The notes beneath the pieces are model-generated. The model saw only the letters and a list, made by a program, of their open reading frames with translations, was not told the DNA's origin and searched no databases. Below, one piece after another: positions 1,191 to 36,527 of a DNA stretch of 41,035 nucleotides. The DNA comes from a bacterium. GTDB taxonomy: Bacteria > Patescibacteriota > Minisyncoccia > UBA6257 > JACOXY01. Each line of letters starts with the position of its first letter. The stretch's first letter is position 1. The DNA lies in the NCBI GenBank assembly GCA_030680955.1, contig JAUXUB010000016.1:1-41035 (forward strand). The letters run 5' to 3'. A program made the position numbers and the translations under genes.

Positions 1191-1344
1191 CACCATCCTC
1201 AATTAACCCCTTCCTATAAGACTTTTGTCATTGCGAGGGCGAAGCCCGCGGCAATCCAAGAAATAATGAGATAAATCTGGATTGCTTCGTCGTTCCTCCT
1301 CGCAAAGACGAGATTAAAAGAGTAATGGTTAATTGGGGATGGTA
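1191..1344 (+). mobile_element. 154-bp multi-hairpin MITE, copy 1 (orientation A)
   Basis: CACCATCCTCAATTAACC...GTCATTGCGAGGGCGAAGCCCGCGGCAATCC...CTGGATTGCTTCGTCGTTCCTCCTCGCAAAGACGAG...GGTTAATTGGGGATGGTA. About 90 percent or more identical by eye to the three other copies. Confidence 0.85.
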
Positions 1345-1810: not shown

Positions 1811-1964
1811 TACCATCCCCAATTAACCACTACTCTTTTAACCTCGTCTTTGCGAGGAGGAACGACGAAGCAATCCAGATTTATCCCGTTAATTTCTGGA
1901 TTGCCGCGGGCTTCGCCCTCGCAATGACAGAAGTCTTATAGGAAGTGGTTAATTGAGGATGGTA
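1811..1964 (-). mobile_element. 154-bp multi-hairpin MITE, copy 2 (orientation B)
   Basis: Reverse complement of the copy 1/3 consensus: TACCATCCCCAATTAACC...GGTTAATTGAGGATGGTA. TA is present at both ends. Confidence 0.85.
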
Positions 1965-2023: not shown

Positions 2024-4216
2024 GTGCTAAAGGAATTGCCATCGGAGTACAATCCAAAAGAATACGAAGAAAAGATGTACAAACTCTGGGAAGACAGTGG
2101 TTTTTTTAATCCAGACAATTTACCTAAAGTTTCAAAACAAAAAAACTTTAGTATCATAATGCCGCCACCTAATGCAAATGGAGCGCTCCATATGGGGCAT
2201 GCGCTTTTTGTAACTTTACAAGACATAATGATTCGATATAAAAGAATGCAGGGATATAAAACACTATGGCTTCCAGGGGCAGATCATGCCGGTTTTGAAA
2301 CTCAAGTTGTTTACCAAAAGAAACTAGAAAAAGAAGGACGGTCTTTTTGGGAAGTGCCAAAAGATAAACTTTACGAGGAAATTTTAGCTTTTACACTAGA
2401 GAATAAAAAACATATGGAAAGCCAGCTTAGGCAACTTGGTGCTTCCTGTGATTGGGGAAGAGAGAAATTCACGCTAGACGATGATATTAAAAAAATAGTT
2501 TATGAAACATTTAAAAAACTTTATGATGACAATTTAGTATATAAAGCGGAGCGCCCTGTAAATTGGTGTACCAGACACCAAACAACCTTATCTGATTTAG
2601 AAATAAAGCACGAGGAGCGAAAAGATAAATTATTTTATGTTCGTTACAAATTTGAAAATTCTGAAGATTATATAGTTGTTGCTACAACAAGACCAGAAAC
2701 AATTCCGGCAGATATTGCGATCGCTGTAAACCCAAAATCAAAATGGAATAAATATGTTGGTAAGAAAGTTTTAAATCCACTTACTCAAGAGGCAATCTTG
2801 ATTATTAGCGATAAGCGCGTAGAAATTTCATTCGGAACTGGTGCGCTTAAAATAACGCCATATCACGACGCGTTAGACTTTGAAATATATAAGGATCATC
2901 CCGAACTACCAGCTTCAAAAAGTGTTATTAATAAATTTGGAGCAATAGAAAATTCTGGGACTAAACTTGATGGATTAAAAATATTGCCAGCAAGAGAAAA
3001 GTCTATAGAAATTTTAAAATTTTCACTAGACAAAGAACCAGAAGATTATGTTCACCAAGTTAGTATTTGCTACAAGTGCAATACTTTAATTGAACCAAGA
3101 ATAATGAATCAGTGGTTTATTAAGACCACCGAAAAATCAAAAACTGGTAGTAAATCTCTAAGAGACCTCGCGATAGATGCAGTAAAGACAAAAAAAGTAA
3201 AATTTGTAACAAAGAAGTTTGAAAAGATTTTCATGCATTGGATGAAGAATCTACGAGATTGGAATATATCTAGGCAAATTGTATGGGGTATTAAAATTCC
3301 AGCTTGGTATCATGAACCAATATGCATACCAAAAAAAGGCCACGAAGGTGATGTGGTGAAATGTAATGAAATTATAATTTCGATGGATGAACCAATATGC
3401 GAGTTTTGCGATGCAAAATTTATACAAGAGTCTGATGTTTTTGATACTTGGTTTTCTTCAGGTCAATGGCCATTCGCATCACTAATGTCCACTCATAATA
3501 AAAATGATTTTAAAGATTTTTATCCAACTGATGTGATGGAAACTGGATGGGATATTTTATTCTTTTGGATAGCAAGAATGATAATGTTGGGAACATACAA
3601 AACAGGTAAAGTGCCTTTCAAAACTGTTTACCTTCATGGGTTGGTTCGCGACAAAGACCGACAAAAAATGTCTAAATCTAAGGGCAATGTTATTGACCCT
3701 CTTGGTGTAGCAGATATTTATGGTGCAGATGCCATAAGAATGTCGCTTGTTGTTGGAACTGCTCCAGGAAATGACCCCGTTATTTCTGAAGATAAAATAC
3801 GCGGTTATAGGAATTTTGCAACAAAAATTTGGAATGCTACAAGACTAATAACAATGCGTGGGTCAAGCACGATTCCAGAAAAACCTAATTATACGAACGA
3901 AGATAAAAAAACACTAAAAGAATTTGAAAAATTCAAAAAAACAGTTATTAAAGATATGGATGCCTATCGCTTTCACGAAGCTTCAAATAAAATTTATCAT
4001 TATTTCTGGCATACTTTTGCCGACAAAATTCTTGAATCATCAAAAGCGCGCTTGCAAGATGAAAATAAAAAAGTTAAAGAAACCGCAACGGCATTTCTCA
4101 TTAAACTCTTAACAGAGCAATTAAAGCTTCTACATCCATTTATGCCTTTTGTAACAGAAGCTATTTGGCAAGAATTATATGGTGGAAAGAAAATATTAAT
4201 GGTGGAAAAATTGTGA
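2024..4216 (+). CDS. valS: Valine--tRNA ligase
   Basis: Class I motifs are present: PPPNANGALHMGH (HIGH) and KMSKSKGN (KMSKS). A CP1 editing region and an anticodon-binding domain are also present. GTG start, TGA stop. At 730 aa there is no C-terminal coiled-coil extension. Confidence 0.95.
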   Translation: MLKELPSEYNPKEYEEKMYKLWEDSGFFNPDNLPKVSKQKNFSIIMPPPNANGALHMGHALFVTLQDIMIRYKRMQGYKTLWLPGADHAGFETQVVYQKKLEKEGRSFWEVPKDKLYEEILAFTLENKKHMESQLRQLGASCDWGREKFTLDDDIKKIVYETFKKLYDDNLVYKAERPVNWCTRHQTTLSDLEIKHEERKDKLFYVRYKFENSEDYIVVATTRPETIPADIAIAVNPKSKWNKYVGKKVLNPLTQEAILIISDKRVEISFGTGALKITPYHDALDFEIYKDHPELPASKSVINKFGAIENSGTKLDGLKILPAREKSIEILKFSLDKEPEDYVHQVSICYKCNTLIEPRIMNQWFIKTTEKSKTGSKSLRDLAIDAVKTKKVKFVTKKFEKIFMHWMKNLRDWNISRQIVWGIKIPAWYHEPICIPKKGHEGDVVKCNEIIISMDEPICEFCDAKFIQESDVFDTWFSSGQWPFASLMSTHNKNDFKDFYPTDVMETGWDILFFWIARMIMLGTYKTGKVPFKTVYLHGLVRDKDRQKMSKSKGNVIDPLGVADIYGADAIRMSLVVGTAPGNDPVISEDKIRGYRNFATKIWNATRLITMRGSSTIPEKPNYTNEDKKTLKEFEKFKKTVIKDMDAYRFHEASNKIYHYFWHTFADKILESSKARLQDENKKVKETATAFLIKLLTEQLKLLHPFMPFVTEAIWQELYGGKKILMVEKL

Positions 4217-4370
4217 TACCATCCTCAATTAACCACTTCCTATAAGATTTTTGTCATTGCGAGGGCGAAGCCCGCGGCAATCTAGAAAAAAACGGGATAA
4301 ATCTGGATTGCTTCGTCGTTCCTCCTCGCAAAGACGAAGTTAAAAGAATAGTGGTTAATTGGGGATGGTA
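4217..4370 (+). mobile_element. 154-bp multi-hairpin MITE, copy 3 (orientation A)
   Basis: It begins immediately after the valS TGA and has TA at both ends. Confidence 0.85.
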
Positions 4371-11873: not shown

Positions 11874-12027
11874 TACCATCCCCAATTAACCACTACTCTT
11901 TTAATCTCGTCTTTGCGAGGAGGAACGACGAAGCAATCCAGATTTATCCCATTATTTCCTGGATTGCCGCGGGCTTCGCCCTCGCAATGACAAAAGTCTT
12001 ATAGGAAGTGGTTAATTGAGGATGGTA
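11874..12027 (-). mobile_element. 154-bp multi-hairpin MITE, copy 4 (orientation B)
   Basis: Near-identical to copy 2, with TA at both ends. It lies between rpmB and tRNA-Pro. Confidence 0.85.
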
Positions 12028-19482: not shown

Positions 19483-20361
19483 TTAAATTTTTACAACCAA
19501 GCTCTTTAGTTTATTTTCAATCATTTGAATTGGATAAAGATCTTTGGCATAAATTTCAATTAGTCTTATTCCAGATTTCCTACAGAGCATTCTCTTTCTT
19601 TTAATAGCTCGGTCATAGCGCGGACTATCTTTAGCTAGACCAAAATATTCTATAAAAGTTTTTTCACTAATACTCCAATCTGCACGATGTCCTGTTTTTG
19701 GATATGGAGCTTCTCTTTTGTGAGAAATATTATTTTTAGTCAACCAATCATCAATAATCGCTTCGGAAATAGAATCACAATTATGACCATCACTAGCAAC
19801 TGTATTTGATCGTTTGTACATGCGCTGACTATGTGAACGGTGGGGCATAAGACCAGCTGCAAGGATGGCTTTATTCCAAGAACCAAATTCCCTAATGCAC
19901 GCATCTACAATAAACATAGCCTCACGTTTTGCTGGAGTGCGCCCCAATGCTTTAGACATAAATTGTAATTTATTGATAAGCGCTTGTGGTGTATGAATTT
20001 TTCGCACAGACCATAGACACTTCCTGCTACAATATTTTGTACTGCCTTTTATTTTAACCCCACAATTAGCACAAATCTTAAAACCCGGCCCGCGTTTTGG
20101 GAACTTTTGATCGTTGATATGAGCGGCACAACTTCTTGAACAATAACTATGGTCTACTTTAAGAATTTGATTCGGGCAACGATAAAATCTGTTTTCACAT
20201 TCTGCATTACTGCAATGCAATTCCAAGCTCGTAACTTTTGACTTAGTCATGCATTGTTTGGAACAGTATTGTTTCCATTTAAATTTCTTTGCTTCATTTA
20301 CCCGCCCTTGCGGCCGTAAAAATATTTTTTTACACAAGGCGCATTTTACTTGAATATTCAT
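19483..20361 (-). CDS. Zinc-ribbon repeat protein with homing-endonuclease-associated repeat and C-terminal PD-(D/E)xK-like nuclease-type domain
   Basis: Three YCSxxC/CxxC zinc-ribbon units. LGRTPAKREAMFIVDACIREFGSWNKAILAAGL resembles the HNH-associated repeat. The tail ...SEAIIDDWL...ADWSI..KTFIEYFGL...GIRLIEI resembles Vsr/restriction-endonuclease-like folds. Motif-level call only. Confidence 0.45.
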   Translation of the reverse strand: MNIQVKCALCKKIFLRPQGRVNEAKKFKWKQYCSKQCMTKSKVTSLELHCSNAECENRFYRCPNQILKVDHSYCSRSCAAHINDQKFPKRGPGFKICANCGVKIKGSTKYCSRKCLWSVRKIHTPQALINKLQFMSKALGRTPAKREAMFIVDACIREFGSWNKAILAAGLMPHRSHSQRMYKRSNTVASDGHNCDSISEAIIDDWLTKNNISHKREAPYPKTGHRADWSISEKTFIEYFGLAKDSPRYDRAIKRKRMLCRKSGIRLIEIYAKDLYPIQMIENKLKSLVVKI

Positions 20362-21336: not shown

Positions 21337-22896
21337 TCACTTCACGTAATGCTTTTGTTTCATTTTTTGTTCTTCCCCTGCTTCAAATTCATCTTTAGTG
21401 CTTTTTGCTTTTTTAGCAAGCTGATGCAATTCTTTATCAGATAATTTATTTAATATTTTAATTCTTAATTCTAGATTCTCTATCGTGTTTCTTAAAGGAT
21501 CTTCTATTACTTCTTCTAATAATATAGAAAGTATCGCCCCAATTTTTGGACCTGGTGGAATATCTAGCAATCGCATCAAATCATCTCCTTTAACTAAAAG
21601 CATTTTGGGGCTTATTGGATCTCGCTTTACCTTCTCTATCATAAAAAGAAGATGGCGAAGTTTATATGGTACAGCCTTAGGAACTCCAGAACCAATTCTA
21701 TCCGCTTCACGAACTTTTATCAAATCGTCAATATTTTCTGGTCCAACTCTTGCTATAAAACGGCGTACACCAGATGGTGTTACTTCGCCAACGTTATAAT
21801 AAAATAAATGATACCTTACTAGATGAGCCACCTGCTCGATTAGGTCTTTGTTAAAATGAAGTCGATCCATTATTTTTACAGCCATTTTCCCTCCGATTAT
21901 ATCGTGTCCATAAAATGTAGAATCTGGACCATTGCCACGCTTACTCTTTGGTTTTCCAACATCATGCAAAAGTGATGCTAGACGAATGTGAAGAGGATAA
22001 TTTTTAGAAACTGCGTAATCAAGAGCTCTTAAATTATGTTCCCAAACAGAATATATATGATGTTTATTTTGTCCCACGTCTATACCTTCTCTAAGTTCTG
22101 GCATAATGTGTCGAAGTAATCCATAATCTTCCAGTATTTGAACTCCATCTTTAGCGCGACTAGACAATATTATTTTTTGAAATTCATCTCTAATTCGTTC
22201 TTTAGCAATAGCCTCAAGCAACCCACTGTGATGTAAAATAGCAGCTCCAGTTTCGCCGTCAATTTTAAAGCCGAGTTCGGATGCAAAACGTATCGCACGC
22301 ATCATTCGAAGCGCATCTTCGGTAAATCGTTCCTCGGGCTTACCCACTGTTTTAATGAGTTTAGCTTTTAAATCGCCCTGACCTCCATATGGATCCACCA
22401 ATTGCAGATTTTTTAAATCAATCTTTGTTTCGTTTTCAGTACTTAAGCCATCAACAATAAAATCTTTAGTATCAGATGACCAGCCAAGAGCTAGTGAATT
22501 AATCGTGAAATCGCGACGCGACAAATCTTCTTCAACTGTCTTTGCAAAAGAAATTGAATCTGGATGTCGCTTATCGGTATATTTGCCCTCTTTTCTAAAA
22601 GTAGTAATCTCTACTATTTTAGCTTTCAACTCCGACGCTGCGGTCGGAGTCCGGACCTCTTCGAGCGTCGGGATTTTCACCCCAACAGTTCCAAATTGAT
22701 TCTCATAAACACTATCAGGAAATAATTTTTGAACTTCATCTGGCTTAGCATTTGTCGTTATATCCCAGTCTTTTGGTTCGCGACCAAGTAAAATATCTCG
22801 TACGCAACCACCTACAAGATACGCCTCAAAATTAGCTTTTCTCAAAACCCTTAAAATTTTATTAACTTCAATTGGTATATGAATTTCTTTAGACAT
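21337..22896 (-). CDS. cca: CCA-adding tRNA nucleotidyltransferase with HD domain
   Basis: LVGGCVRDILLGREPKDWDITT, RRDFTINSLA, an HD motif (LLHDVGKP) and a C-terminal extension. Confidence 0.85.
   Translation of the reverse strand: MSKEIHIPIEVNKILRVLRKANFEAYLVGGCVRDILLGREPKDWDITTNAKPDEVQKLFPDSVYENQFGTVGVKIPTLEEVRTPTAASELKAKIVEITTFRKEGKYTDKRHPDSISFAKTVEEDLSRRDFTINSLALGWSSDTKDFIVDGLSTENETKIDLKNLQLVDPYGGQGDLKAKLIKTVGKPEERFTEDALRMMRAIRFASELGFKIDGETGAAILHHSGLLEAIAKERIRDEFQKIILSSRAKDGVQILEDYGLLRHIMPELREGIDVGQNKHHIYSVWEHNLRALDYAVSKNYPLHIRLASLLHDVGKPKSKRGNGPDSTFYGHDIIGGKMAVKIMDRLHFNKDLIEQVAHLVRYHLFYYNVGEVTPSGVRRFIARVGPENIDDLIKVREADRIGSGVPKAVPYKLRHLLFMIEKVKRDPISPKMLLVKGDDLMRLLDIPPGPKIGAILSILLEEVIEDPLRNTIENLELRIKILNKLSDKELHQLAKKAKSTKDEFEAGEEQKMKQKHYVK
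22630..22672 (-). repeat. G+C-rich palindromic module inserted in frame in cca
   Basis: The coding strand reads CCCGACGCTCGAAGAGGTCCGGACTCCGACCGCAGCGTCGGAG, encoding PTLEEVRTPTAASE. The 7-bp-stem hairpin CTCCGAC-CGCAGC-GTCGGAG is the same module as in uvrB. Confidence 0.6.
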
Positions 22897-22925: not shown

Positions 22926-22954
22926 TTGACAAATATGGTATTTTATGATATCTT
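22926..22954 (+). promoter_or_regulatory. Candidate promoter of the 22996-23636 two-gene unit
   Basis: TTGACA (22926-22931), a 17-nt spacer, then TATCTT. Confidence 0.4.
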
Positions 22955-23361
22955 GTTACCAGCAAATTAATCCCCAAATGAAAGGAGGATTAAACTTGGT
23001 ACCAGGTCAGAAACGAAGATTTCGAAAGGGTTGGAGTGAGAGGTTCGACCCGAGGCGGTATCGAAAGGTTTTCCTTAACGGGACATATCCTGGGGGTCAA
23101 AGAAAACTTCTCGGAAGTCACGGGGGTAAATCATATTGCGCTGATTGGACAGAATCGCGAAAGAGGAAAATCATTGATACTCTCCTCGAAAAGGAAACTG
23201 AGGAAATGTCGCTCCTTGATTATTACTTCGACGAATTAAGCGACTATTTCGAAAATGAATGGGACGAGGATGAGGAAGGAGACGAAAAACTGGATAATCA
23301 TAATCACGACGACAATGATGATCTAGATTACGATGCTCTTGATTATTCTGATGTTTTTTAA
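22945..23361 (+). CDS. Hypothetical protein, basic N-terminal half and strongly acidic C-terminal tail
   Basis: The likely true start is TTG 22996, preceded by AAAGGAGGA at a 7-nt spacing. The tail reads ...ENEWDEDEEGDEKLDNHNHDDNDDLDYDALDYSDVF. The region is G+C-richer than its surroundings. Confidence 0.45.
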   Translation: MISCYQQINPQMKGGLNLVPGQKRRFRKGWSERFDPRRYRKVFLNGTYPGGQRKLLGSHGGKSYCADWTESRKRKIIDTLLEKETEEMSLLDYYFDELSDYFENEWDEDEEGDEKLDNHNHDDNDDLDYDALDYSDVF

Positions 23362-23384
23362 GAAATCCGAAACGAAGGGGAGGT

Positions 23385-23636
23385 ATGATGCCAATTCCAC
23401 TTCTTGAACTTCTAGAGTTCCACTCATTTTTTCGAGAAGAGCTTGAGGAGCTACTCACCTCGCCTACTCTACGAATAACTGGAATAGCTGCCGAGATGAC
23501 TCTCAATAAGTTAGACGCAGGAGAAAAACTCCCGAAAAGTTTCAGGTTGGCAGATGACCTTCTGTGTCGTCTCGGCCAGGACTTGCGACTAACCCATGAC
23601 CGGGTGGAAGAACTCCGCCTACTATTTCTGGAATAA
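23385..23636 (+). CDS. Hypothetical protein (83 aa)
   Basis: SD GGGGAGG before ATGATG, followed by a strong terminator. Confidence 0.5.
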   Translation: MMPIPLLELLEFHSFFREELEELLTSPTLRITGIAAEMTLNKLDAGEKLPKSFRLADDLLCRLGQDLRLTHDRVEELRLLFLE

Positions 23637-23642
23637 TCCAGC

Positions 23643-23688
23643 GCCCGCATTAACGAATTTTTTTATTGTCGTTATGCGGGCTTTTTTT
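23643..23688 (+). terminator. Rho-independent terminator
   Basis: GCCCGCATTAACGA ... TCGTTATGCGGGC followed by TTTTTTT. Confidence 0.75.
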
Positions 23689-26267: not shown

Positions 26268-27017
26268 TATTTACGTCATCGCAAGACGTAAATATTATTC
26301 CAACACTAACTTTTTAATACTATCCAAATCTAAATTTTGAAGCCAAGATTTTATACTTTTTTTATATCCATCCGGTCCATCAAAAAATTCAGATAATAAC
26401 TCTCTTTGGGTAACTGAGGGGAAATTTTTCTCCCCAGAGTAATCACGATGACTCGACCAGCGATAGCTATCTAAAAATTCAATTGCTTTCCTATAATTCG
26501 TCAATTTGCGATCTCGCCATTCCTTAAATTTAAAATCTAATGGATTGAAATGAATATAGTATGGAAGGTGAATAAAATGTGCGTCGTTCTTAACCGGAAC
26601 AGATTTAAATCTCCCCTCAAACAAAGTTCCGACTCTTTCGTATTTATTGTTAAAATACTTGGCATATCCCATATTAACTTTTTTCATAAACAATGAGATA
26701 CTACCCTCGTGACGAGGAGAAATAAGAAGGTGATAGTGATTATCCATCAAACAAAAAACGTGTAGATCAACCAATAACTTTCTTGGCTTCTTTTCATTGG
26801 GTTCAAATTTACGTCTTGCGATGACGTTAAATTGATAATAAGTGCTATTCGCTGGTTCTTGATTATTAAATTCAAATAAGTCGTGAATGAAGCGGTAGCG
26901 ATCCTCATCATCCATAAATATTTTTCTTTTATCTACTCCTCTACTTAAAACGTGATATATTTCACTCATAATGTAATATATAATATCCCAATATTTACGT
27001 CATCGCAAGACGTTAAT
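26268..27017 (-). mobile_element. IS200/RAYT-like unit: Y1 (HUH) transposase gene bracketed by two copies of one hairpin
   Basis: The hairpin TATTTACGTC-ATCGCAA-GACGTAAATA at 26268-26294 is repeated in the same orientation at 26993-27017 with one stem mismatch. The surrounding roughly 35 bp are also repeated. Confidence 0.65.
26295..26969 (-). CDS. REP-associated tyrosine transposase (RAYT) / IS200-like Y1 HUH transposase
   Basis: HUH motif MDNHYHLL, then YIHFNP and RWSSH, as in COG1943/RAYT proteins. 224 aa. Confidence 0.75.
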   Translation of the reverse strand: MSEIYHVLSRGVDKRKIFMDDEDRYRFIHDLFEFNNQEPANSTYYQFNVIARRKFEPNEKKPRKLLVDLHVFCLMDNHYHLLISPRHEGSISLFMKKVNMGYAKYFNNKYERVGTLFEGRFKSVPVKNDAHFIHLPYYIHFNPLDFKFKEWRDRKLTNYRKAIEFLDSYRWSSHRDYSGEKNFPSVTQRELLSEFFDGPDGYKKSIKSWLQNLDLDSIKKLVLE

Positions 27018-31272: not shown

Positions 31273-33387
31273 TCATCTGGTAATACGCGCAGTAAAATTA
31301 GAGCTGGGTTTAGATTTTGTTCCTATAGATTTTCGCTCTTTGTTCAAATCTTTAGACAAAATCTTAATTTCATCTCGCAGAATCGCTGCGAGTTCGAAGT
31401 CTAACTCGCCAGAGGCCTCCTTCATAGATTTTTCTTTCTCTTTAATAATATCTTCAATTTTTTTGCCCTTAATCGCACTTAAATCTAACTTCAAAACTGC
31501 TGCAATATCTTTACGTTTGGACATCAATTCTTCGGTAATATCATGAATGGCACGTTCAATCGTTTTAGGAGTAATTCCATGTTTTTTATTGTAGGCAAGC
31601 TGAATTGTGCGACGTCTTTCGGTTTCTCCGATTGCACGGGTAAGTGATCCAGTCATATGATCCGCATATAATAGCACCAGACCATTCACATTTCTGGCAG
31701 CGCGACCAATAGTCTGGATTAGAGCTGTATCAGAACGCAAAAATCCTTCTTTATCAGCGTCCATAATAGCAACGAGTGATACTTCTGGCAAGTCTAATCC
31801 TTCTCGCAATAAGTTAACACCAACCAATACGTCAAATTTACCACGCCTTAAATTAGAAAGTATTTGAATTCTATCCATTGTCTTTACATCACTATGAAGA
31901 TATTCGGATTTGATTTTCTCTTGCTGTAAGTATGCGCTTAAATCTTCTGCCATTTTCTTAGTAAGAGTTGTTACTAATACTCTCTCTTTTTTTTCTACAC
32001 GTTCTGCAATCCATTTCATTAAATCTTTTACTTGATTCTTGGCAGGCAATATTTTTATTTGAGGATCAACAAGCCCAGTCGGCCTAATGATTTGCTCAAC
32101 TATCCCCGACGCTTCGGTCGGGGCTCCGACCCCACTATTTTTAAAATCAGATTTGGGGCGTCGGAGCTGATTAGCTGCTTCACGACTTATTTGTTTTTCA
32201 TATTCAGCCGGTGTTGCTGAAGTATATATAATTTGATGAACGCGCTCATTAAATTCATTAAATTTTAGAGGACGATTATCTGCCGCGCTTGGCAGTCTAA
32301 ATCCATACTCTATAAGAGTTTTCTTGCGAGATGCATCTCCCGCATACATTCCTGTTATTTGTGGAACGGTAACATGAGATTCGTCTATGATAGTAAGGAA
32401 ATCTCCTCGAAAATAATCTAATAGTGTTTCTGGTGGCTCTCCTGCGGCACGCCCAGATAGTTGCCTTGAGTAATTTTCAATCCCATGACAATAACCAACT
32501 TCTTGAATCATCGCTAAATCAAATTTTGTTCTTTGATCTAGACGCTCGGCTTCTAGAAATTTTTTGTCATTTTCAAAAACTTTTAATTGCTCTTCGAGTT
32601 CCTTCCTGATTGCTTTTACAGCGCGCTGCTTTTGCGGACCTAATGTAATGAAGTGTCTAGCTGGAGAAATAATAATATCAGGAATAATTTTTGACTCACG
32701 TGACACTGGATCTACTAAATATATTTCTTTTATTAAATCGCCTTCTGTTACAAAGTTATAAATGATTTCCTTGTCTGGTGGCATTACCTCCCAGTTATCC
32801 CCCCTCAACCTAAATGACCCCCTGGTTAAATCTGCATTAGTTCTTTTAAACTGCAGCTGAACTAATTTTCTTGCAAATTCTTTTCGAGTTACTCTGTCTA
32901 ACGGTTTTAGTCTTATAATATTTTCTGCGTATGCTTCTGGTGCTCCCAAGCCGTAGATACAAGAAACGGAGGCAACAACAATTACGTCTTTCCTTGTTAG
33001 CAGGTCAGTAGTTGCCGCATGACGTAATTTATCTATCTCGTCATTTATCATTGCTTCTTTTTCGATATAGGTATCAGAACTTGGCATATAAGCTTCCGGC
33101 TGATAATAATCATAATAAGAAACAAAATAATTTACAGAATTATTTGGAAATATTTCTCTAAATTCATTGCAAAGTTGAGCAGCTAAAGTTTTGTTATGAG
33201 CTATTACAAGAGTTGGCTTTTGAATTTTTTCTATGACGTTTGCAACTGTGAATGTTTTACCAGAACCTGTAACACCCAAGAGTGTTTGGTGTTTCATGCC
33301 CGCTTCTAATCCAGCGACTAGTTGTTTAATCGCCTTTGGTTGATCTCCCGCTGGACGATGTTTAGATACAATTTTAAAATTATTCAT
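31273..33387 (-). CDS. uvrB: Excinuclease ABC subunit B
   Basis: GVTGSGKT, DESH, helicase motifs and a C-terminal UVR motif (FELAAILRDEI). The start is moved to ATG 33387 (MNNFKIVSKHRPAGDQPKAI). Confidence 0.95.
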   Translation of the reverse strand: MNNFKIVSKHRPAGDQPKAIKQLVAGLEAGMKHQTLLGVTGSGKTFTVANVIEKIQKPTLVIAHNKTLAAQLCNEFREIFPNNSVNYFVSYYDYYQPEAYMPSSDTYIEKEAMINDEIDKLRHAATTDLLTRKDVIVVASVSCIYGLGAPEAYAENIIRLKPLDRVTRKEFARKLVQLQFKRTNADLTRGSFRLRGDNWEVMPPDKEIIYNFVTEGDLIKEIYLVDPVSRESKIIPDIIISPARHFITLGPQKQRAVKAIRKELEEQLKVFENDKKFLEAERLDQRTKFDLAMIQEVGYCHGIENYSRQLSGRAAGEPPETLLDYFRGDFLTIIDESHVTVPQITGMYAGDASRKKTLIEYGFRLPSAADNRPLKFNEFNERVHQIIYTSATPAEYEKQISREAANQLRRPKSDFKNSGVGAPTEASGIVEQIIRPTGLVDPQIKILPAKNQVKDLMKWIAERVEKKERVLVTTLTKKMAEDLSAYLQQEKIKSEYLHSDVKTMDRIQILSNLRRGKFDVLVGVNLLREGLDLPEVSLVAIMDADKEGFLRSDTALIQTIGRAARNVNGLVLLYADHMTGSLTRAIGETERRRTIQLAYNKKHGITPKTIERAIHDITEELMSKRKDIAAVLKLDLSAIKGKKIEDIIKEKEKSMKEASGELDFELAAILRDEIKILSKDLNKERKSIGTKSKPSSNFTARITR
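32104..32167 (-). repeat. G+C-rich double-hairpin module inserted in frame in uvrB
   Basis: Plus strand: CCCCGAC-GCTTCG-GTCGGGG, then GCTCCGACCCC...GGGGCGTCGGAGC. It encodes ...NQLRRPKSDFKNSGVGAPTEASG..., an extra segment of about 22 aa relative to E. coli UvrB just before RPTGL. Confidence 0.65.
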
Positions 33388-33542
33388 AGGGTTTACTTGC
33401 CCCGTTAAATTGCGCAGCAATTTTTTACGGGGTGTTTTGAAACTATTTTGAACATAAATATCAAAAGTGCCCAAGAGATAAAATCACTAGGGGGTATGTC
33501 TTAAGTTGTGATTACAGTATAACACATAAATCAGAATAAATC

Positions 33543-35274: not shown

Positions 35275-35340
35275 GAATAAATCGGAAACAATATTTTCTA
35301 GGCCTTTTGCAAAATTAGGATTTAGTCAAAGTTTTATTCC

Positions 35341-35401
35341 CTGAGCTTGTCGAAGGGTAAAATTTTGGCTTAAAATCAAGGTATGCCTTCGACAAGCTCA
35401 G
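35341..35401. repeat. 16-bp-stem hairpin downstream of pdaD
   Basis: CTGAGCTTGTCGAAGG, a 29-nt loop, then CCTTCGACAAGCTCAG. The right arm CTTCGACAAGCTCAG recurs alone at 11817-11831. Confidence 0.7.
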
Positions 35402-35439
35402 ACAATAATCAGTTTCTATTTTATTTTGCGAAGGATCTT

Positions 35440-36021
35440 CTACTCGAATATCAAAACGGCGGCAGAAATAGTGGTTGTCCACAAGCCGTTTTTGTCACCT
35501 TGAGCGGACTGAGTATTATTCATTGTTTTAAAAATCTTTCCAGAAGATTTATAAACCTGTTCGCGCTCATCCCATGCGGCATTAGAATCAAATTCCAAAC
35601 CTAATGTCGTCGCCAGCATTGTTGCCGCTAAATCTTCGGCATACTCTCCTGCTTTCTCGTCAGTCTCGCCAAATGGATGATGTTCAGAAAGATAACCATA
35701 TTGGGCAGGATCTGACGGCAAGGCCAAACCAATTGAGGCAGCAATTAAACGATTTGGTTCATTAGTAGCGTTCCTCGCCATTACACAAAAAACAACTTGA
35801 CCAGGAACCATGAACTTCTTTCCTTCTTCCCTCGTTATACGTTTACAATTCGGTGGGAAAATTGAACTTACATAAACTAAATTAAATTCTGCAATTCCAG
35901 CGTCTCAAAGCGCCAACTCAAATGAAGCTAAATAATCTTTGTGACGACCTACGCCCTTTGTAAGAAACATTCTTTTTGGAACAAAGGTTTCCGTGTGAGA
36001 AGAACTATTTGTGTTTTCCAT
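35440..36021 (-). pseudogene. pdaD: Pyruvoyl-dependent arginine decarboxylase interrupted by one in-frame TGA (codon 39)
   Basis: From ATG 36021: [56 protein letters not shown]..., continuing in frame into track ORF 35440-35811. The TGA at 35905-35907 sits where PdaD proteins have Arg (ELALRDA). Confidence 0.7.
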
Positions 36022-36031
36022 TTTCTATATT

Positions 36032-36067
36032 TACCCGCCTAAGTTTCTTAATAAGAAATTTTGGAGG
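36032..36067. repeat. Imperfect palindrome just upstream of the pdaD ATG, sharing a motif with 9314-9330
   Basis: TACCCGCCTAAGTTTCTTA / TAAGAAATTTTGGAGG. Confidence 0.4.
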
Positions 36068-36124
36068 ATTTATTTTAATATTAATTGAAATTATTATACG
36101 AGTATTTATTTTCTAATACAAGGT

Positions 36125-36256
36125 GTGGATAACCAGGTAGTGAAAATGCGAGCGTATTTATAATTACAGCAATAGAACATTTACGATATTAACGCTTTTG
36201 TCTATCATTTTAAATCAAATGTATTTCAAAACTCGCATTTCTACTACCTGGATAAG
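36125..36256. mobile_element. MITE-like element, GGATAACCGGGTAGT family, copy 2
   Basis: GTGGATAACCAGGTAGTGAAAATGCGAGCG ... CAAAACTCGCATTTCTACTACCTGGATAAG. The ends match copy 1 but the core is unrelated. Confidence 0.65.
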
Positions 36257-36287
36257 TTGTTCGGGTAATAAGAAGATAAAAAAATGG

Positions 36288-36338
36288 CTTATCCGGTAAC
36301 CGAAACACAGGAAAATAATATTTGGGTTACCAGATAAG
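36288..36338. repeat. Hairpin module with 14-bp stem, related to 38700-38749
   Basis: CTTATCCGGTAACC [GAAACACAGGAAAATAATATTTG] GGTTACCAGATAAG. Confidence 0.6.
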
Positions 36339-36422
36339 AAGAAAGACCGATATTTACAGAAAATCAATATTTGGGTAGTCGGATGTCGGGGTTATCCGAC
36401 TTCAGGGGACATCGGACTTCAT

Positions 36423-36467
36423 GGGGTCATCGGGTCAGGGAGATTACACGTCCGCCATCTCTAATGA
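36423..36467. repeat. Decayed right end of a CCCGTTAGA-family element
   Basis: GGGGTCATCGGGTCAGGGAGATTACACGTCCGCCATCTCTAATGA aligns with 38735-38780. Confidence 0.55.
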
Positions 36468-36527
36468 TATAAGTCCTAAAAGCTATGCCAGAGAGCAAAC
36501 CGTAACGAAAAGTATTATGCAAAAGGT

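Follow-up and report, generated by a model that had tools for sequence, protein, structure and literature searches.

The stretch considered here, called the window, comprises 41,035 nucleotides (contig JAUXUB010000016.1 of assembly GCA_030680955.1, from a bacterium of the phylum Patescibacteriota). Its G+C content is about 36%, and nearly all of its genes lie on the minus strand. One of them, cca, encodes a CCA-adding tRNA nucleotidyltransferase, and within this gene lies a short G+C-rich double hairpin that is translated in frame with the enzyme. We argue that the double hairpin is a copy of a small repeat family, here called family A, which is dispersed among the Patescibacteria and has a second copy in the uvrB gene of the window. 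The features at the two sites are given below; bit scores refer to a covariance model, R1, built (alignment A2) from 73 family A copies of other genomes and none of the window.

21337 to 22896, minus strand: cca, class II CCA-adding tRNA nucleotidyltransferase with an HD domain, 519 amino acids, host gene of the element
22630 to 22673, minus strand: family A element, cca copy, 44 nt (R1 46.8 bits, E ~3e-9, full length)
22650 to 22673, minus strand: hairpin 1 in cca, arms TCCCGAC (22673-22667) and GTCCGGA (22656-22650) around the loop GCTCGAAGAG; one C.C mismatch, degenerate
22630 to 22649, minus strand: hairpin 2 in cca, CTCCGAC-CGCAGC-GTCGGAG, its 7-bp stem perfect, translated P-T-A-A-S-E
31273 to 33474, minus strand: uvrB, host gene of the second family A copy (Pfam UvrB, UvrB_inter, Helicase_C, ResIII, UVR)
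32104 to 32166, minus strand: family A element, uvrB copy, 63 nt (R1 53.8 bits)

The cca product carries the Pfam domains PolyA_pol (head), PolyA_pol_RNAbd, HD and tRNA_NucTran2_2, and has 7999 homologues as well as the structural relatives 6IBP and 1MIV. The GGxVRD...DxD and RRD motifs of its head and its RNA-binding neck are those of a class II CCA-adding enzyme. The open reading frame (ORF) is intact, and the invariant residues of the catalytic core (G29, G30, R33, D43, D45, E96, R127, R128 and D129) are all retained. The element itself is 70% G+C and forms the highest 40-nt G+C peak in the window (0.72). It is read in frame, the last two bases of the I75 codon and codons P76 to E89 yielding I75 plus PTLEEVRTPTAASE, in the protein context FGTVGVKI...LKAKIVEITTFR (the peptide across the insert is ..VKIPTLEEVRTPTAASELKAK..). 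A preliminary description of this DNA had quoted the coding strand from 22672 to 22630 exactly, with the translation PTLEEVRTPTAASE.

Family A is a tandem double hairpin of about 39-63 nt, with the consensus yyCCGAC-G-variable stem/loop-GTCGGrr followed by nnCCGAC-CGNAGC-GTCGGn'n'. In hairpin 1 the arms yyCCGAC and GTCGGrr enclose a G that is left unpaired and, after it, a stem/loop whose length varies from 4 to about 30 nt. Hairpin 2 abuts it directly, and the folded form is thus two tandem hairpins without a spacer. On the opposite strand hairpin 2 shows the hairpin-1 layout CCGAC-G-..-GTCGG, and the copies from Taylorbacteria are fully symmetric. The preliminary description had treated the cca site as a single hairpin module, with CTCCGAC-CGCAGC-GTCGGAG (22649-22630) and an outer pairing CCGACGCT/AGCGTCGG. 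Both are present, but the unit extends over 44 nt (22630-22673) and contains two tandem hairpins; hairpin 1 had been seen merely as outer pairing because it carries one C.C mismatch. In the cca gene of a relative, L235, the corresponding arm is intact (GTCGGGA, where the window has the mismatched GTCCGGA). Folded as single-stranded DNA, the cca stretch reaches -12.7 kcal/mol (z = -2.4), and the uvrB stretch forms two tandem hairpins at -16.3 kcal/mol (z = -3.2).

The uvrB element reads CTCCGAC-G-CCCC, a 21-nt AT loop and GGGG-TCGGAG, then CCCCGAC-CGAAGC-GTCGGGG, and is translated LRRPKSDFKNSGVGAPTEASG. Its second hairpin differs from that of cca by a compensatory change in the stem (CTCCGAC..GTCGGAG in cca versus CCCCGAC..GTCGGGG in uvrB). 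The two copies had been said to match in hairpin core, orientation and reading frame. They do share the core and the frame CCG-ACC-GNA-GCG-TCG; the relative frames of their hairpins differ, the left arm giving P-T in cca and L-R-R in uvrB.

Could a run of G+C-rich codons in cca be palindromic by accident, or be an ancestral segment of CCA enzymes? The loop in which it lies is hypervariable, and nothing else speaks for either idea. The pattern CTCCGAC-N6-GTCGGAG (<=2 mismatches) is found three times in the window, the cca and uvrB copies being two of these, against 0.03 expected from shuffles. R1 recovers the cca copy at E ~3e-9 and finds nothing above 8 bits elsewhere in the 41-kb window besides the two copies. 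Moreover, nearly all homologues lack the segment, as do the solved CCA enzymes 6IBP and 1MIV. Shuffles, homologue alignment and covariance model together refute chance, convergence and ancestry, to which we attach a negligible probability, in agreement with the earlier judgement that convergence is hard to believe.

Among 120 homologues, the loop between FGTVGVK and IVE(I/V)TTFR usually has about 8 residues (TDSEDPKL), a typical sequence being VKT-DSEDP-KLKIVE. In relatives of the window it takes three forms: L317 (protein 87% identical) has a short loop that reads IKTESENPSLKIVE, L318 (76% identical) has an A+T-rich expansion at the insert site, and L234 (87% identical) has there a direct doublet of a different palindrome, TTACGGACATCCGATGTCGG. 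Since these loops are short or different, the insert was acquired by the window lineage after it split from them. Vertical inheritance from a deep ancestor is unlikely for this lineage, because the closest relatives of the carriers show empty loops; within the group of L235 and L236, which share '..KIDIVE', inheritance of the insert is likely to have been vertical. The cca genes of L235 and L236, which share the inserted peptide, share the nucleotide palindrome too, and an alignment of this kind was the check that had been proposed for the earlier reading of the site as an acquired copy of a repeated module; it did not refute that reading. The different loops of near relatives and the dispersal of the module in many Patescibacteria genomes bear that reading out. 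Sequence comparison thus supports the view that cca acquired the segment by insertion of a palindromic module that recurs elsewhere, and that the segment is not a conserved part of the CCA enzyme.

Other inserts occupy this part of the enzyme elsewhere. The doublet of L234 (L234:10220-10300) is translated in two frames, as RTSDVG and GHPMSE, and its core, GGACAT-CCG-ATGTCC, is of the palindrome type that flanks genes for proteins like the RAYTs (tyrosine transposases associated with repetitive extragenic palindromes, REPs) in other Parcubacteria (L251, L254, L257, L262, L265). Further recurrent inserts are seen in parcubacterial cca homologues (P0019, P0022, P0053, P0064, P0073 and P0111; P0003, P0071, P0083, P0088, P0113 and P0114): peptides of the type '..RINADQ..RESA..' form an insert family in the same beta-turn, and a 'SFAGATADKPAT' insert follows an LF motif about 12 residues upstream of the turn. 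These probably reflect additional repeat families translated in frame. With unrelated insert families in the same loop of other lineages, the cca loop is a general hot spot.

An AlphaFold2 model of the enzyme, based on an alignment of 67 sequences (mean pLDDT, the predicted local distance difference test, 86.5; predicted TM-score, pTM, 0.82), puts residues 75-93 in a turn that joins the beta-strands 70-74 and 94-99; within it, residues 78-91 have a pLDDT below 50. Whether the insert falls in a loop between strands of the head domain had been put forward as a check, and in the model it does. From this placement, the insert would be a tolerated, disordered surface extension that is neutral, or nearly so, for the enzyme.

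How widespread is the module? One genome per species was scanned with the 25-mer GTCGG-N4-CCGACCGNAGCGTCGG; the 16-mer core alone was abandoned as a query, since it was swamped by chance matches in genomes of high G+C. The 25-mer matched at least 120 loci, nearly all in Saccharibacteria, many classes of Parcubacteria, and Doudna-, Gottesman-, Berkel- and Uhrbacteria. No family A match was found in 2.9 million viral contigs, and a phage origin was rejected on this ground. The distribution is patchy: the 41-kb window has two copies, a single Taylorbacteria genome has dozens. Of 127 copies, about 100 fall outside long ORFs in spite of the dense coding of these genomes, and the family thus consists of many dispersed, mostly extragenic, short imperfect palindromes, as REPs do. 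Single hairpins of the form ttCCGAC-CGNAGC-GTCGGaa, with extended covarying stems, occur in Bacteroidota of low G+C (L068, L099, L079, L038, L086, L053); hairpin 2 may therefore have relatives outside the Patescibacteria, and a few dozen chance matches are also expected at this database size.

The pairing in hairpin 2 can be judged from its two outer pairs, which had been left free by the search pattern used to collect the copies. These pairs covary (CG35/UA17/AU15/GC4/UG2 and CG33/UA18/GC17/UG3); 144 of 146 cells are paired, and none of 500 shuffles reaches the observed covariation score. Covariation in hairpin 1 and invariance of CCGAC are not counted as evidence, since both were partly imposed by the method of collection.

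Family A copies are present in some syntenic relatives and absent from others. In uvrB the element directly precedes IVEQIIRPTGL in the window, L161, L214 and L234, while L318 has an empty site (..ISDK|IVEQ..). L318 carries neither a cca nor a uvrB copy, and has one family A copy upstream of tRNA-Pro(ggg). L234 carries, besides its uvrB copy, two copies upstream of tRNA-Pro. The uvrB copies have also changed in place: hairpin 2 has decayed in L234, and hairpin 1 has gained the 21-nt loop in the window.

Perhaps, then, the hairpins are selected cis-acting signals, with functional copies in cca and uvrB. Such signals might work in RNA, as an mRNA stabiliser, RNase site or translational pause, or in DNA, as a binding site for a nucleoid protein, gyrase or a regulator. 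Roles of this sort have been credited to REPs of other bacteria (PMC3733652). The stem covariation shows that pairing is kept across family A, the CCGAC/GTCGG core recurs in distant classes, and copies within ORFs are more often sense than antisense (26 versus 12). However, orthologous in-gene copies decay, with hairpin 1 mismatched in the window cca and hairpin 2 lost in the cca of L236 as well as the uvrB of L234, and this drift weighs against a selected structure at the two sites. The element is absent from most cca and uvrB orthologues, matches no Rfam family, and is too sparse and patchy for a genome-wide signal. Intergenic copies occupy 5', 3' and convergent spacers, that is, spacers of all types, and their orientation relative to transcription is 17:16, on which ground a strand-specific function in RNA was rejected. 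We consider a cis-acting signal rather unlikely.

Patescibacteria depend on DNA uptake, and in Neisseria and Haemophilus the uptake sequences favour repair genes and are often arranged as inverted pairs. Family A might be a signal of this type, or another short recognition sequence for genome maintenance: one copy lies in uvrB, at a site occupied in at least 4 genomes, another lies in a DNA ligase gene, and the core is conserved across classes. Known uptake sequences, however, occur about once per kb, whereas family A occurs twice in 41 kb and is absent from 480 kb of other Patescibacteria DNA that had been sampled with another aim, a density too low by orders of magnitude. Furthermore, what is conserved is a structure with covarying pairs and not a fixed oligomer, and the hosts are for the most part genes of translation, which is what one would expect in any small genome. 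An uptake signal is very improbable.

The in-gene copies have several features of their own. Depending on the threshold for ORF length, 21-38 copies are read through in frame, and the verified hosts comprise UvrB, HisRS, MnmA, GatB, NusA, DnaK, SecA, TGT, Pth and an ATP-dependent DNA ligase. Among 38 copies within ORFs, 27 have a length divisible by three, versus 28 of the 105 others. The earlier proposal that the module is tolerated in one frame only is not borne out, for all six frame/orientation classes are found among the 38 copies; the class of cca and uvrB, CCG-ACC-GNA-GCG-TCG (..GVGxPTxAS..), is the commonest and thus preferred, with 18 of 38 (binomial p ~1e-5, a value that ignores the shared ancestry of some copies).

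If the segment were removed from the transcript, as an intron or by RNA processing, its frame would be irrelevant. Some copies lie in tRNA-like D-arms (described below) and at first sight resemble non-canonical tRNA introns. These hosts are 5' fragments beside an intact tRNA gene, and excision from them is unneeded; in keeping with their fragmentary nature, ARAGORN recognised a tRNA across the deletion junction in one case only. Deletion of the element restores a long ORF in 1 of 127 copies, so that nothing suggests removal at the RNA level, whereas 21-26 copies are read through and lengths that are multiples of three are enriched in ORFs. No ribozyme or intron family was matched, and we regard transcript removal as extremely unlikely.

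The flanks of the copies indicate how family A may choose its sites. In the 97 copies that are not symmetric, the sequence on the 5' side follows T(54%)-Y(88%)-A(78%)-R(87%), and that on the 3' side starts with Y-T. In a subset the element interrupts the sequence of a tRNA D-arm, precisely at TAGCTCAG|TTGGTAGAG or TAG|CTCAGTTGG, with junctions between CAG|TT or TAG|CT (L164, L183, L216, L232, L152, L200, L139, L141, L171, L228, L167 and L190; also L234:12700-12913 and L318:19605-19690). In these cases the host is a tRNA gene copied only in its 5' part, 8-40 nt upstream of an intact tRNA gene. Because the intact neighbour provides an uninterrupted D-arm for reference, it can be seen that insertion was precise and made no target-site duplication. 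The family inserts 3' of a tetranucleotide, T-Y-A-R, without target-site duplication, much as elements of the insertion sequence (IS) type IS200/IS605 do at a specific tetra- or pentanucleotide; the cca copy is one without the motif. 'Empty' partial 5' tRNA copies, without a hairpin, were not seen.

Several related observations concern the same tRNA contexts. Other G+C-rich hairpins (L162, L177) likewise follow CAG| or TAG| in partial tRNA D-arms. The fragment in L318 derives from tRNA-Pro(cgg), yet it stands upstream of tRNA-Pro(ggg). In L234, the closest relative of the window, a hairpin with a partial tRNA duplicate occurs twice upstream of tRNA-Pro.

How did the double hairpin come to lie in cca? 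The explanation that we favour, and think probable, is that a small non-coding repeat of family A, a selfish palindrome dispersed in Patescibacteria and comparable to REPs and to the Rickettsia palindromic elements (RPEs), inserted in the gene. A copy would have entered the beta-hairpin turn of the head domain at the DNA level. The gene would have survived because the element keeps the frame by its length and brings in no stop codon, and because the turn, a surface loop, is permissive; the element would now be translated as a 14-residue disordered extension of the CCA enzyme. In-gene copies in general would be in-frame survivors, whose hairpins decay once they are inside a gene. As to the mode of movement, precise insertion, terminal hairpins and the absence of a duplication are the signature of single-strand transposition by HUH/Y1 enzymes (IS200/IS605, REP-RAYT). 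Family A may accordingly move as folded single-stranded DNA by 'peel and paste' of the IS200/IS605 or RAYT type, inserting 3' of a T-Y-A-R tetranucleotide without target duplication. The proposed HUH step draws on the anatomy and target of the element. Taken alone, the cca copy is an ordinary member of family A.

A number of observations weigh against this explanation. The invariance of the CCGAC core is partly a product of the way in which the copies were collected. In 70 of 112 cases the top strand of family A coincides with the G-rich strand (p = 0.01, with local GC skew as a proxy that is confounded with gene orientation); such a replication-strand bias would speak for the explanation, but at 63:37 it is modest. 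The even orientation of intergenic copies and the low and patchy density of the family, with the empty 480 kb mentioned above, weigh against it as well. At cca itself, the 5' flank of the copy is GAAAA and not T-Y-A-R, and the native loop residues are missing, so that the event was not a clean insertion. Finally, three cca genes, those of the window, L235 and L236, share the same sub-type of element at the same codon boundary, even though their proteins are only about 63% identical and the nearest relatives of each lack the insert. Transfer by recombination, or a very strong site preference, fits this last pattern as well as transposition does.

The recombination alternative deserves to be spelled out. 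Here the insert would have arrived by homologous recombination after DNA uptake, through the conserved flanks FGTVGVK and IVE(V/I)TTFR, in a homing-like spread of one ancient insertion. Sub-type, junction (AAA-AT|C-CCG-ACG) and hairpin-1 loop are identical in the three genes, and 41 of 44 bases match between the elements of the window and L235 in spite of the divergence of the proteins. The native loop residues have been replaced and not merely interrupted, and the usual T-Y-A-R is lacking from the 5' flank. In the immediate flanks, however, 17 of 22 bases are identical and the adjoining codons differ at synonymous sites, from which it follows that any converted tract would have been barely longer than the element. 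The residues after the insert differ as well (LKAKIVE versus ..KIDIVE), and a strong target preference combined with selection for the sole permissive site would give the same picture. On balance we consider this route unlikely, and return to insertion of a family A copy as the preferred reading.

The other counterweight to that reading is the mobilising enzyme. The window contains one candidate, together with a second family of hairpins, family B:

26295 to 26969, minus strand: gene for a RAYT-like Y1 (HUH) transposase of 224 aa (Pfam Y1_Tnp 33.7 bits, cut-off 23; HUH motif HYHLL)
26272 to 26290, minus strand: family B hairpin TACGTC-TTGCGAT-GACGTA, 3' of the Y1 gene (3 matches versus 0.01 expected)
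26996 to 27014, minus strand: second copy of family B, a direct copy flanking the Y1 gene
26810 to 26828, plus strand: third copy of family B, inverted, in frame inside the Y1 gene (peptide NVIARRK)

The RAYT-like gene sits between uvrA and uvrC. Its best NCBIfam match is REP_Tyr_transpos, at 32.8 bits and thus below the cut-off of 80. The unit is present in L234 (94% identical) and absent from the syntenic L318, and therefore looks like a recently inserted IS200-like or RAYT unit; Y1/RAYT-like genes are common in Patescibacteria (433 loci). As the cognate transposase of family A the gene was rejected: neither it nor any of 80 RAYT-like homologues is flanked by family A, and lineage-specific palindromes are found in their flanks instead. 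Four matches to the pattern CCGAC..GTCGG beside the 80 genes belong to other palindromes. Moreover, Y1 genes are not enriched near family A copies (2 matches in about 1.7 Mb), and where copies are paired, the DNA between them contains no transposase. Family A could not be linked to any enzyme.

A bolder proposal would be that family A is an active and so far undescribed minimal single-strand DNA transposon of the whole Patescibacteria radiation, with a T-Y-A-R target that favours the tRNA D-arm and with insertions coupled to partial 5' duplicates of tRNA genes. We hold this to be doubtful. If it were true, the mover would be an enzyme not yet recognised, or RAYT-like proteins would act on non-cognate hairpins, and family A would act quite generally as a source of new surface loops in core proteins of these ultra-small bacteria. 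A unit of 40 nt with a defined target and no target-site duplication would rank among the smallest candidate transposable units. In practical terms, family A inserts explain odd low-complexity peptides (..GVGAPTEASG..) and length variation in proteins of the candidate phyla radiation (CPR), and they should be masked in alignments and phylogenies.

The window holds further repeats and genes of interest. A third repeat family resembles MITEs (short for miniature inverted-repeat transposable elements): a palindrome some 150 nt long, bounded by terminal inverted repeats (CCAATTAACCACT...) and with a G+C-rich inverted pair at its centre, present four times in 41 kb (0 expected), at 1226-1259 (minus), 1896-1929 (plus), 4252-4285 (minus) and 11959-11992 (plus). 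A gene for a class I aminoacyl-tRNA synthetase (2024-4216) has one of these copies on either side, and one copy stands upstream of tRNA-Pro(ggg). A cluster of short G+C-rich hairpins (AGTCGGAT-AACCCCGAC-ATCCGACT and neighbours) at 36378-36443 lies inside a 1.2-kb gap (35275-36527) that has no convincing ORF and no Rfam match. Adjoining cca, a region of 42% G+C (22945-23650) contains overlapping ORFs of 138, 159 and 83 aa on both strands; the 138-aa ORF (22945-23361), the only one of the three that was scanned, has no Pfam match, and relatives carry small unannotated genes in the region next to cca. At 19483-20361 (minus) a 292-aa ORF has the HNH_repeat domain, which is associated with homing endonucleases; the ORF is conserved in L317, where it has the same neighbours.

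How does family A compare with systems already described? Elements of the IS200/IS605 type resemble it in having hairpins at both ends, a tetranucleotide target, no target-site duplication and possibly some replication-strand bias (PMC6006769, PMC8266576). Family A differs in that its hairpins are directly terminal, without guide or linker sequence, that no matching TnpA was found and that its strand bias is weak. It is not a classical MITE, in view of the absence of a target-site duplication at the tRNA-context junctions and of any parent IS found. G+C-rich hairpin or double-hairpin modules in A+T-rich mitochondrial genomes are known from the G+C clusters of yeast var1 and the double-hairpin elements (DHEs) of Allomyces. 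The repetitive hairpin elements (RHEs) of sponges are likewise G+C-rich hairpin modules in a compact A+T-rich genome, in spacers and occasionally in genes (PMC2800124). These elements, unlike family A, are organellar and unrelated in sequence, and no homology is implied.

The closer parallels are with REPs and their compound forms, BIMEs and REPINs. Like family A, these are short imperfect palindromes (20-40 nt per unit) whose stems covary and whose numerous copies lie for the most part outside genes. They are often paired, to which hairpin 2 of family A, as an inverted version of the hairpin-1 architecture CCGAC-G-...-GTCGG, may correspond, and they have a conserved tetranucleotide 5' of the hairpin and sometimes lie in frame in uvrA/B/C/D and tRNA-enzyme genes (PMC3733652). 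A RAYT-like gene in the same window adds to the likeness. Di Nocera et al. divide REPs into super-families tagged GTAG and CGTC, and report that in-frame intragenic REPs concentrate in uvrA/B/C/D, polymerases and tRNA enzymes, two of them in uvrB of Rickettsia conorii; CGTC REPs have no dedicated transposase, and RPE-4 and RPE-6 are equated with them (PMC3733652). In family A, by contrast, the 5' T-Y-A-R belongs to the target, as the tRNA contexts show, and is no GTAG or CGTC tag of the unpaired kind; CGTC/GACG is confined to the junction between loop and stem. Its hairpins abut head to tail without a spacer, and it spans a superphylum and not one RAYT lineage. Lacking both the tag and a single-copy RAYT gene flanked by the same dispersed repeat, family A falls outside the REP-RAYT systems.

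We found no existing description of family A. In Rfam searches of the whole window (gathering thresholds) and of both element regions (E <= 10), only three tRNAs and noise appeared; the literature searched yielded neither the core sequence of the family nor anything linking Patescibacteria with D-loop insertions or in-frame palindromes. RPEs are the classic palindromes fused in frame to housekeeping proteins (PMC10969869). Family A shares with them the character of a selfish palindrome in a reduced, A+T-rich genome, found outside genes as well as in frame in unrelated housekeeping genes, where it adds a peptide segment to the product of the host; its in-frame insertions likewise stand at permissive positions, that in cca in a beta-turn modelled with low confidence. 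It differs from RPE-1 (about 100-150 bp) in its length of 39-63 nt, its sequence, its unrelated phylum and its use of all six frames, and it is no described Rickettsia RPE family, a distinction drawn from its Patescibacterium host and from the absence of its core sequence in the papers searched. Family A thus works like REPs and RPEs, yet it is neither an RPE nor a classical MITE. The tiny genomes of Patescibacteria are usually called streamlined and repeat-poor, and family A has nevertheless colonised their spacers, tRNA-gene fragments and core proteins. In these reduced genomes new protein loops would be built from selfish DNA, in the manner of the RPEs of Rickettsia.

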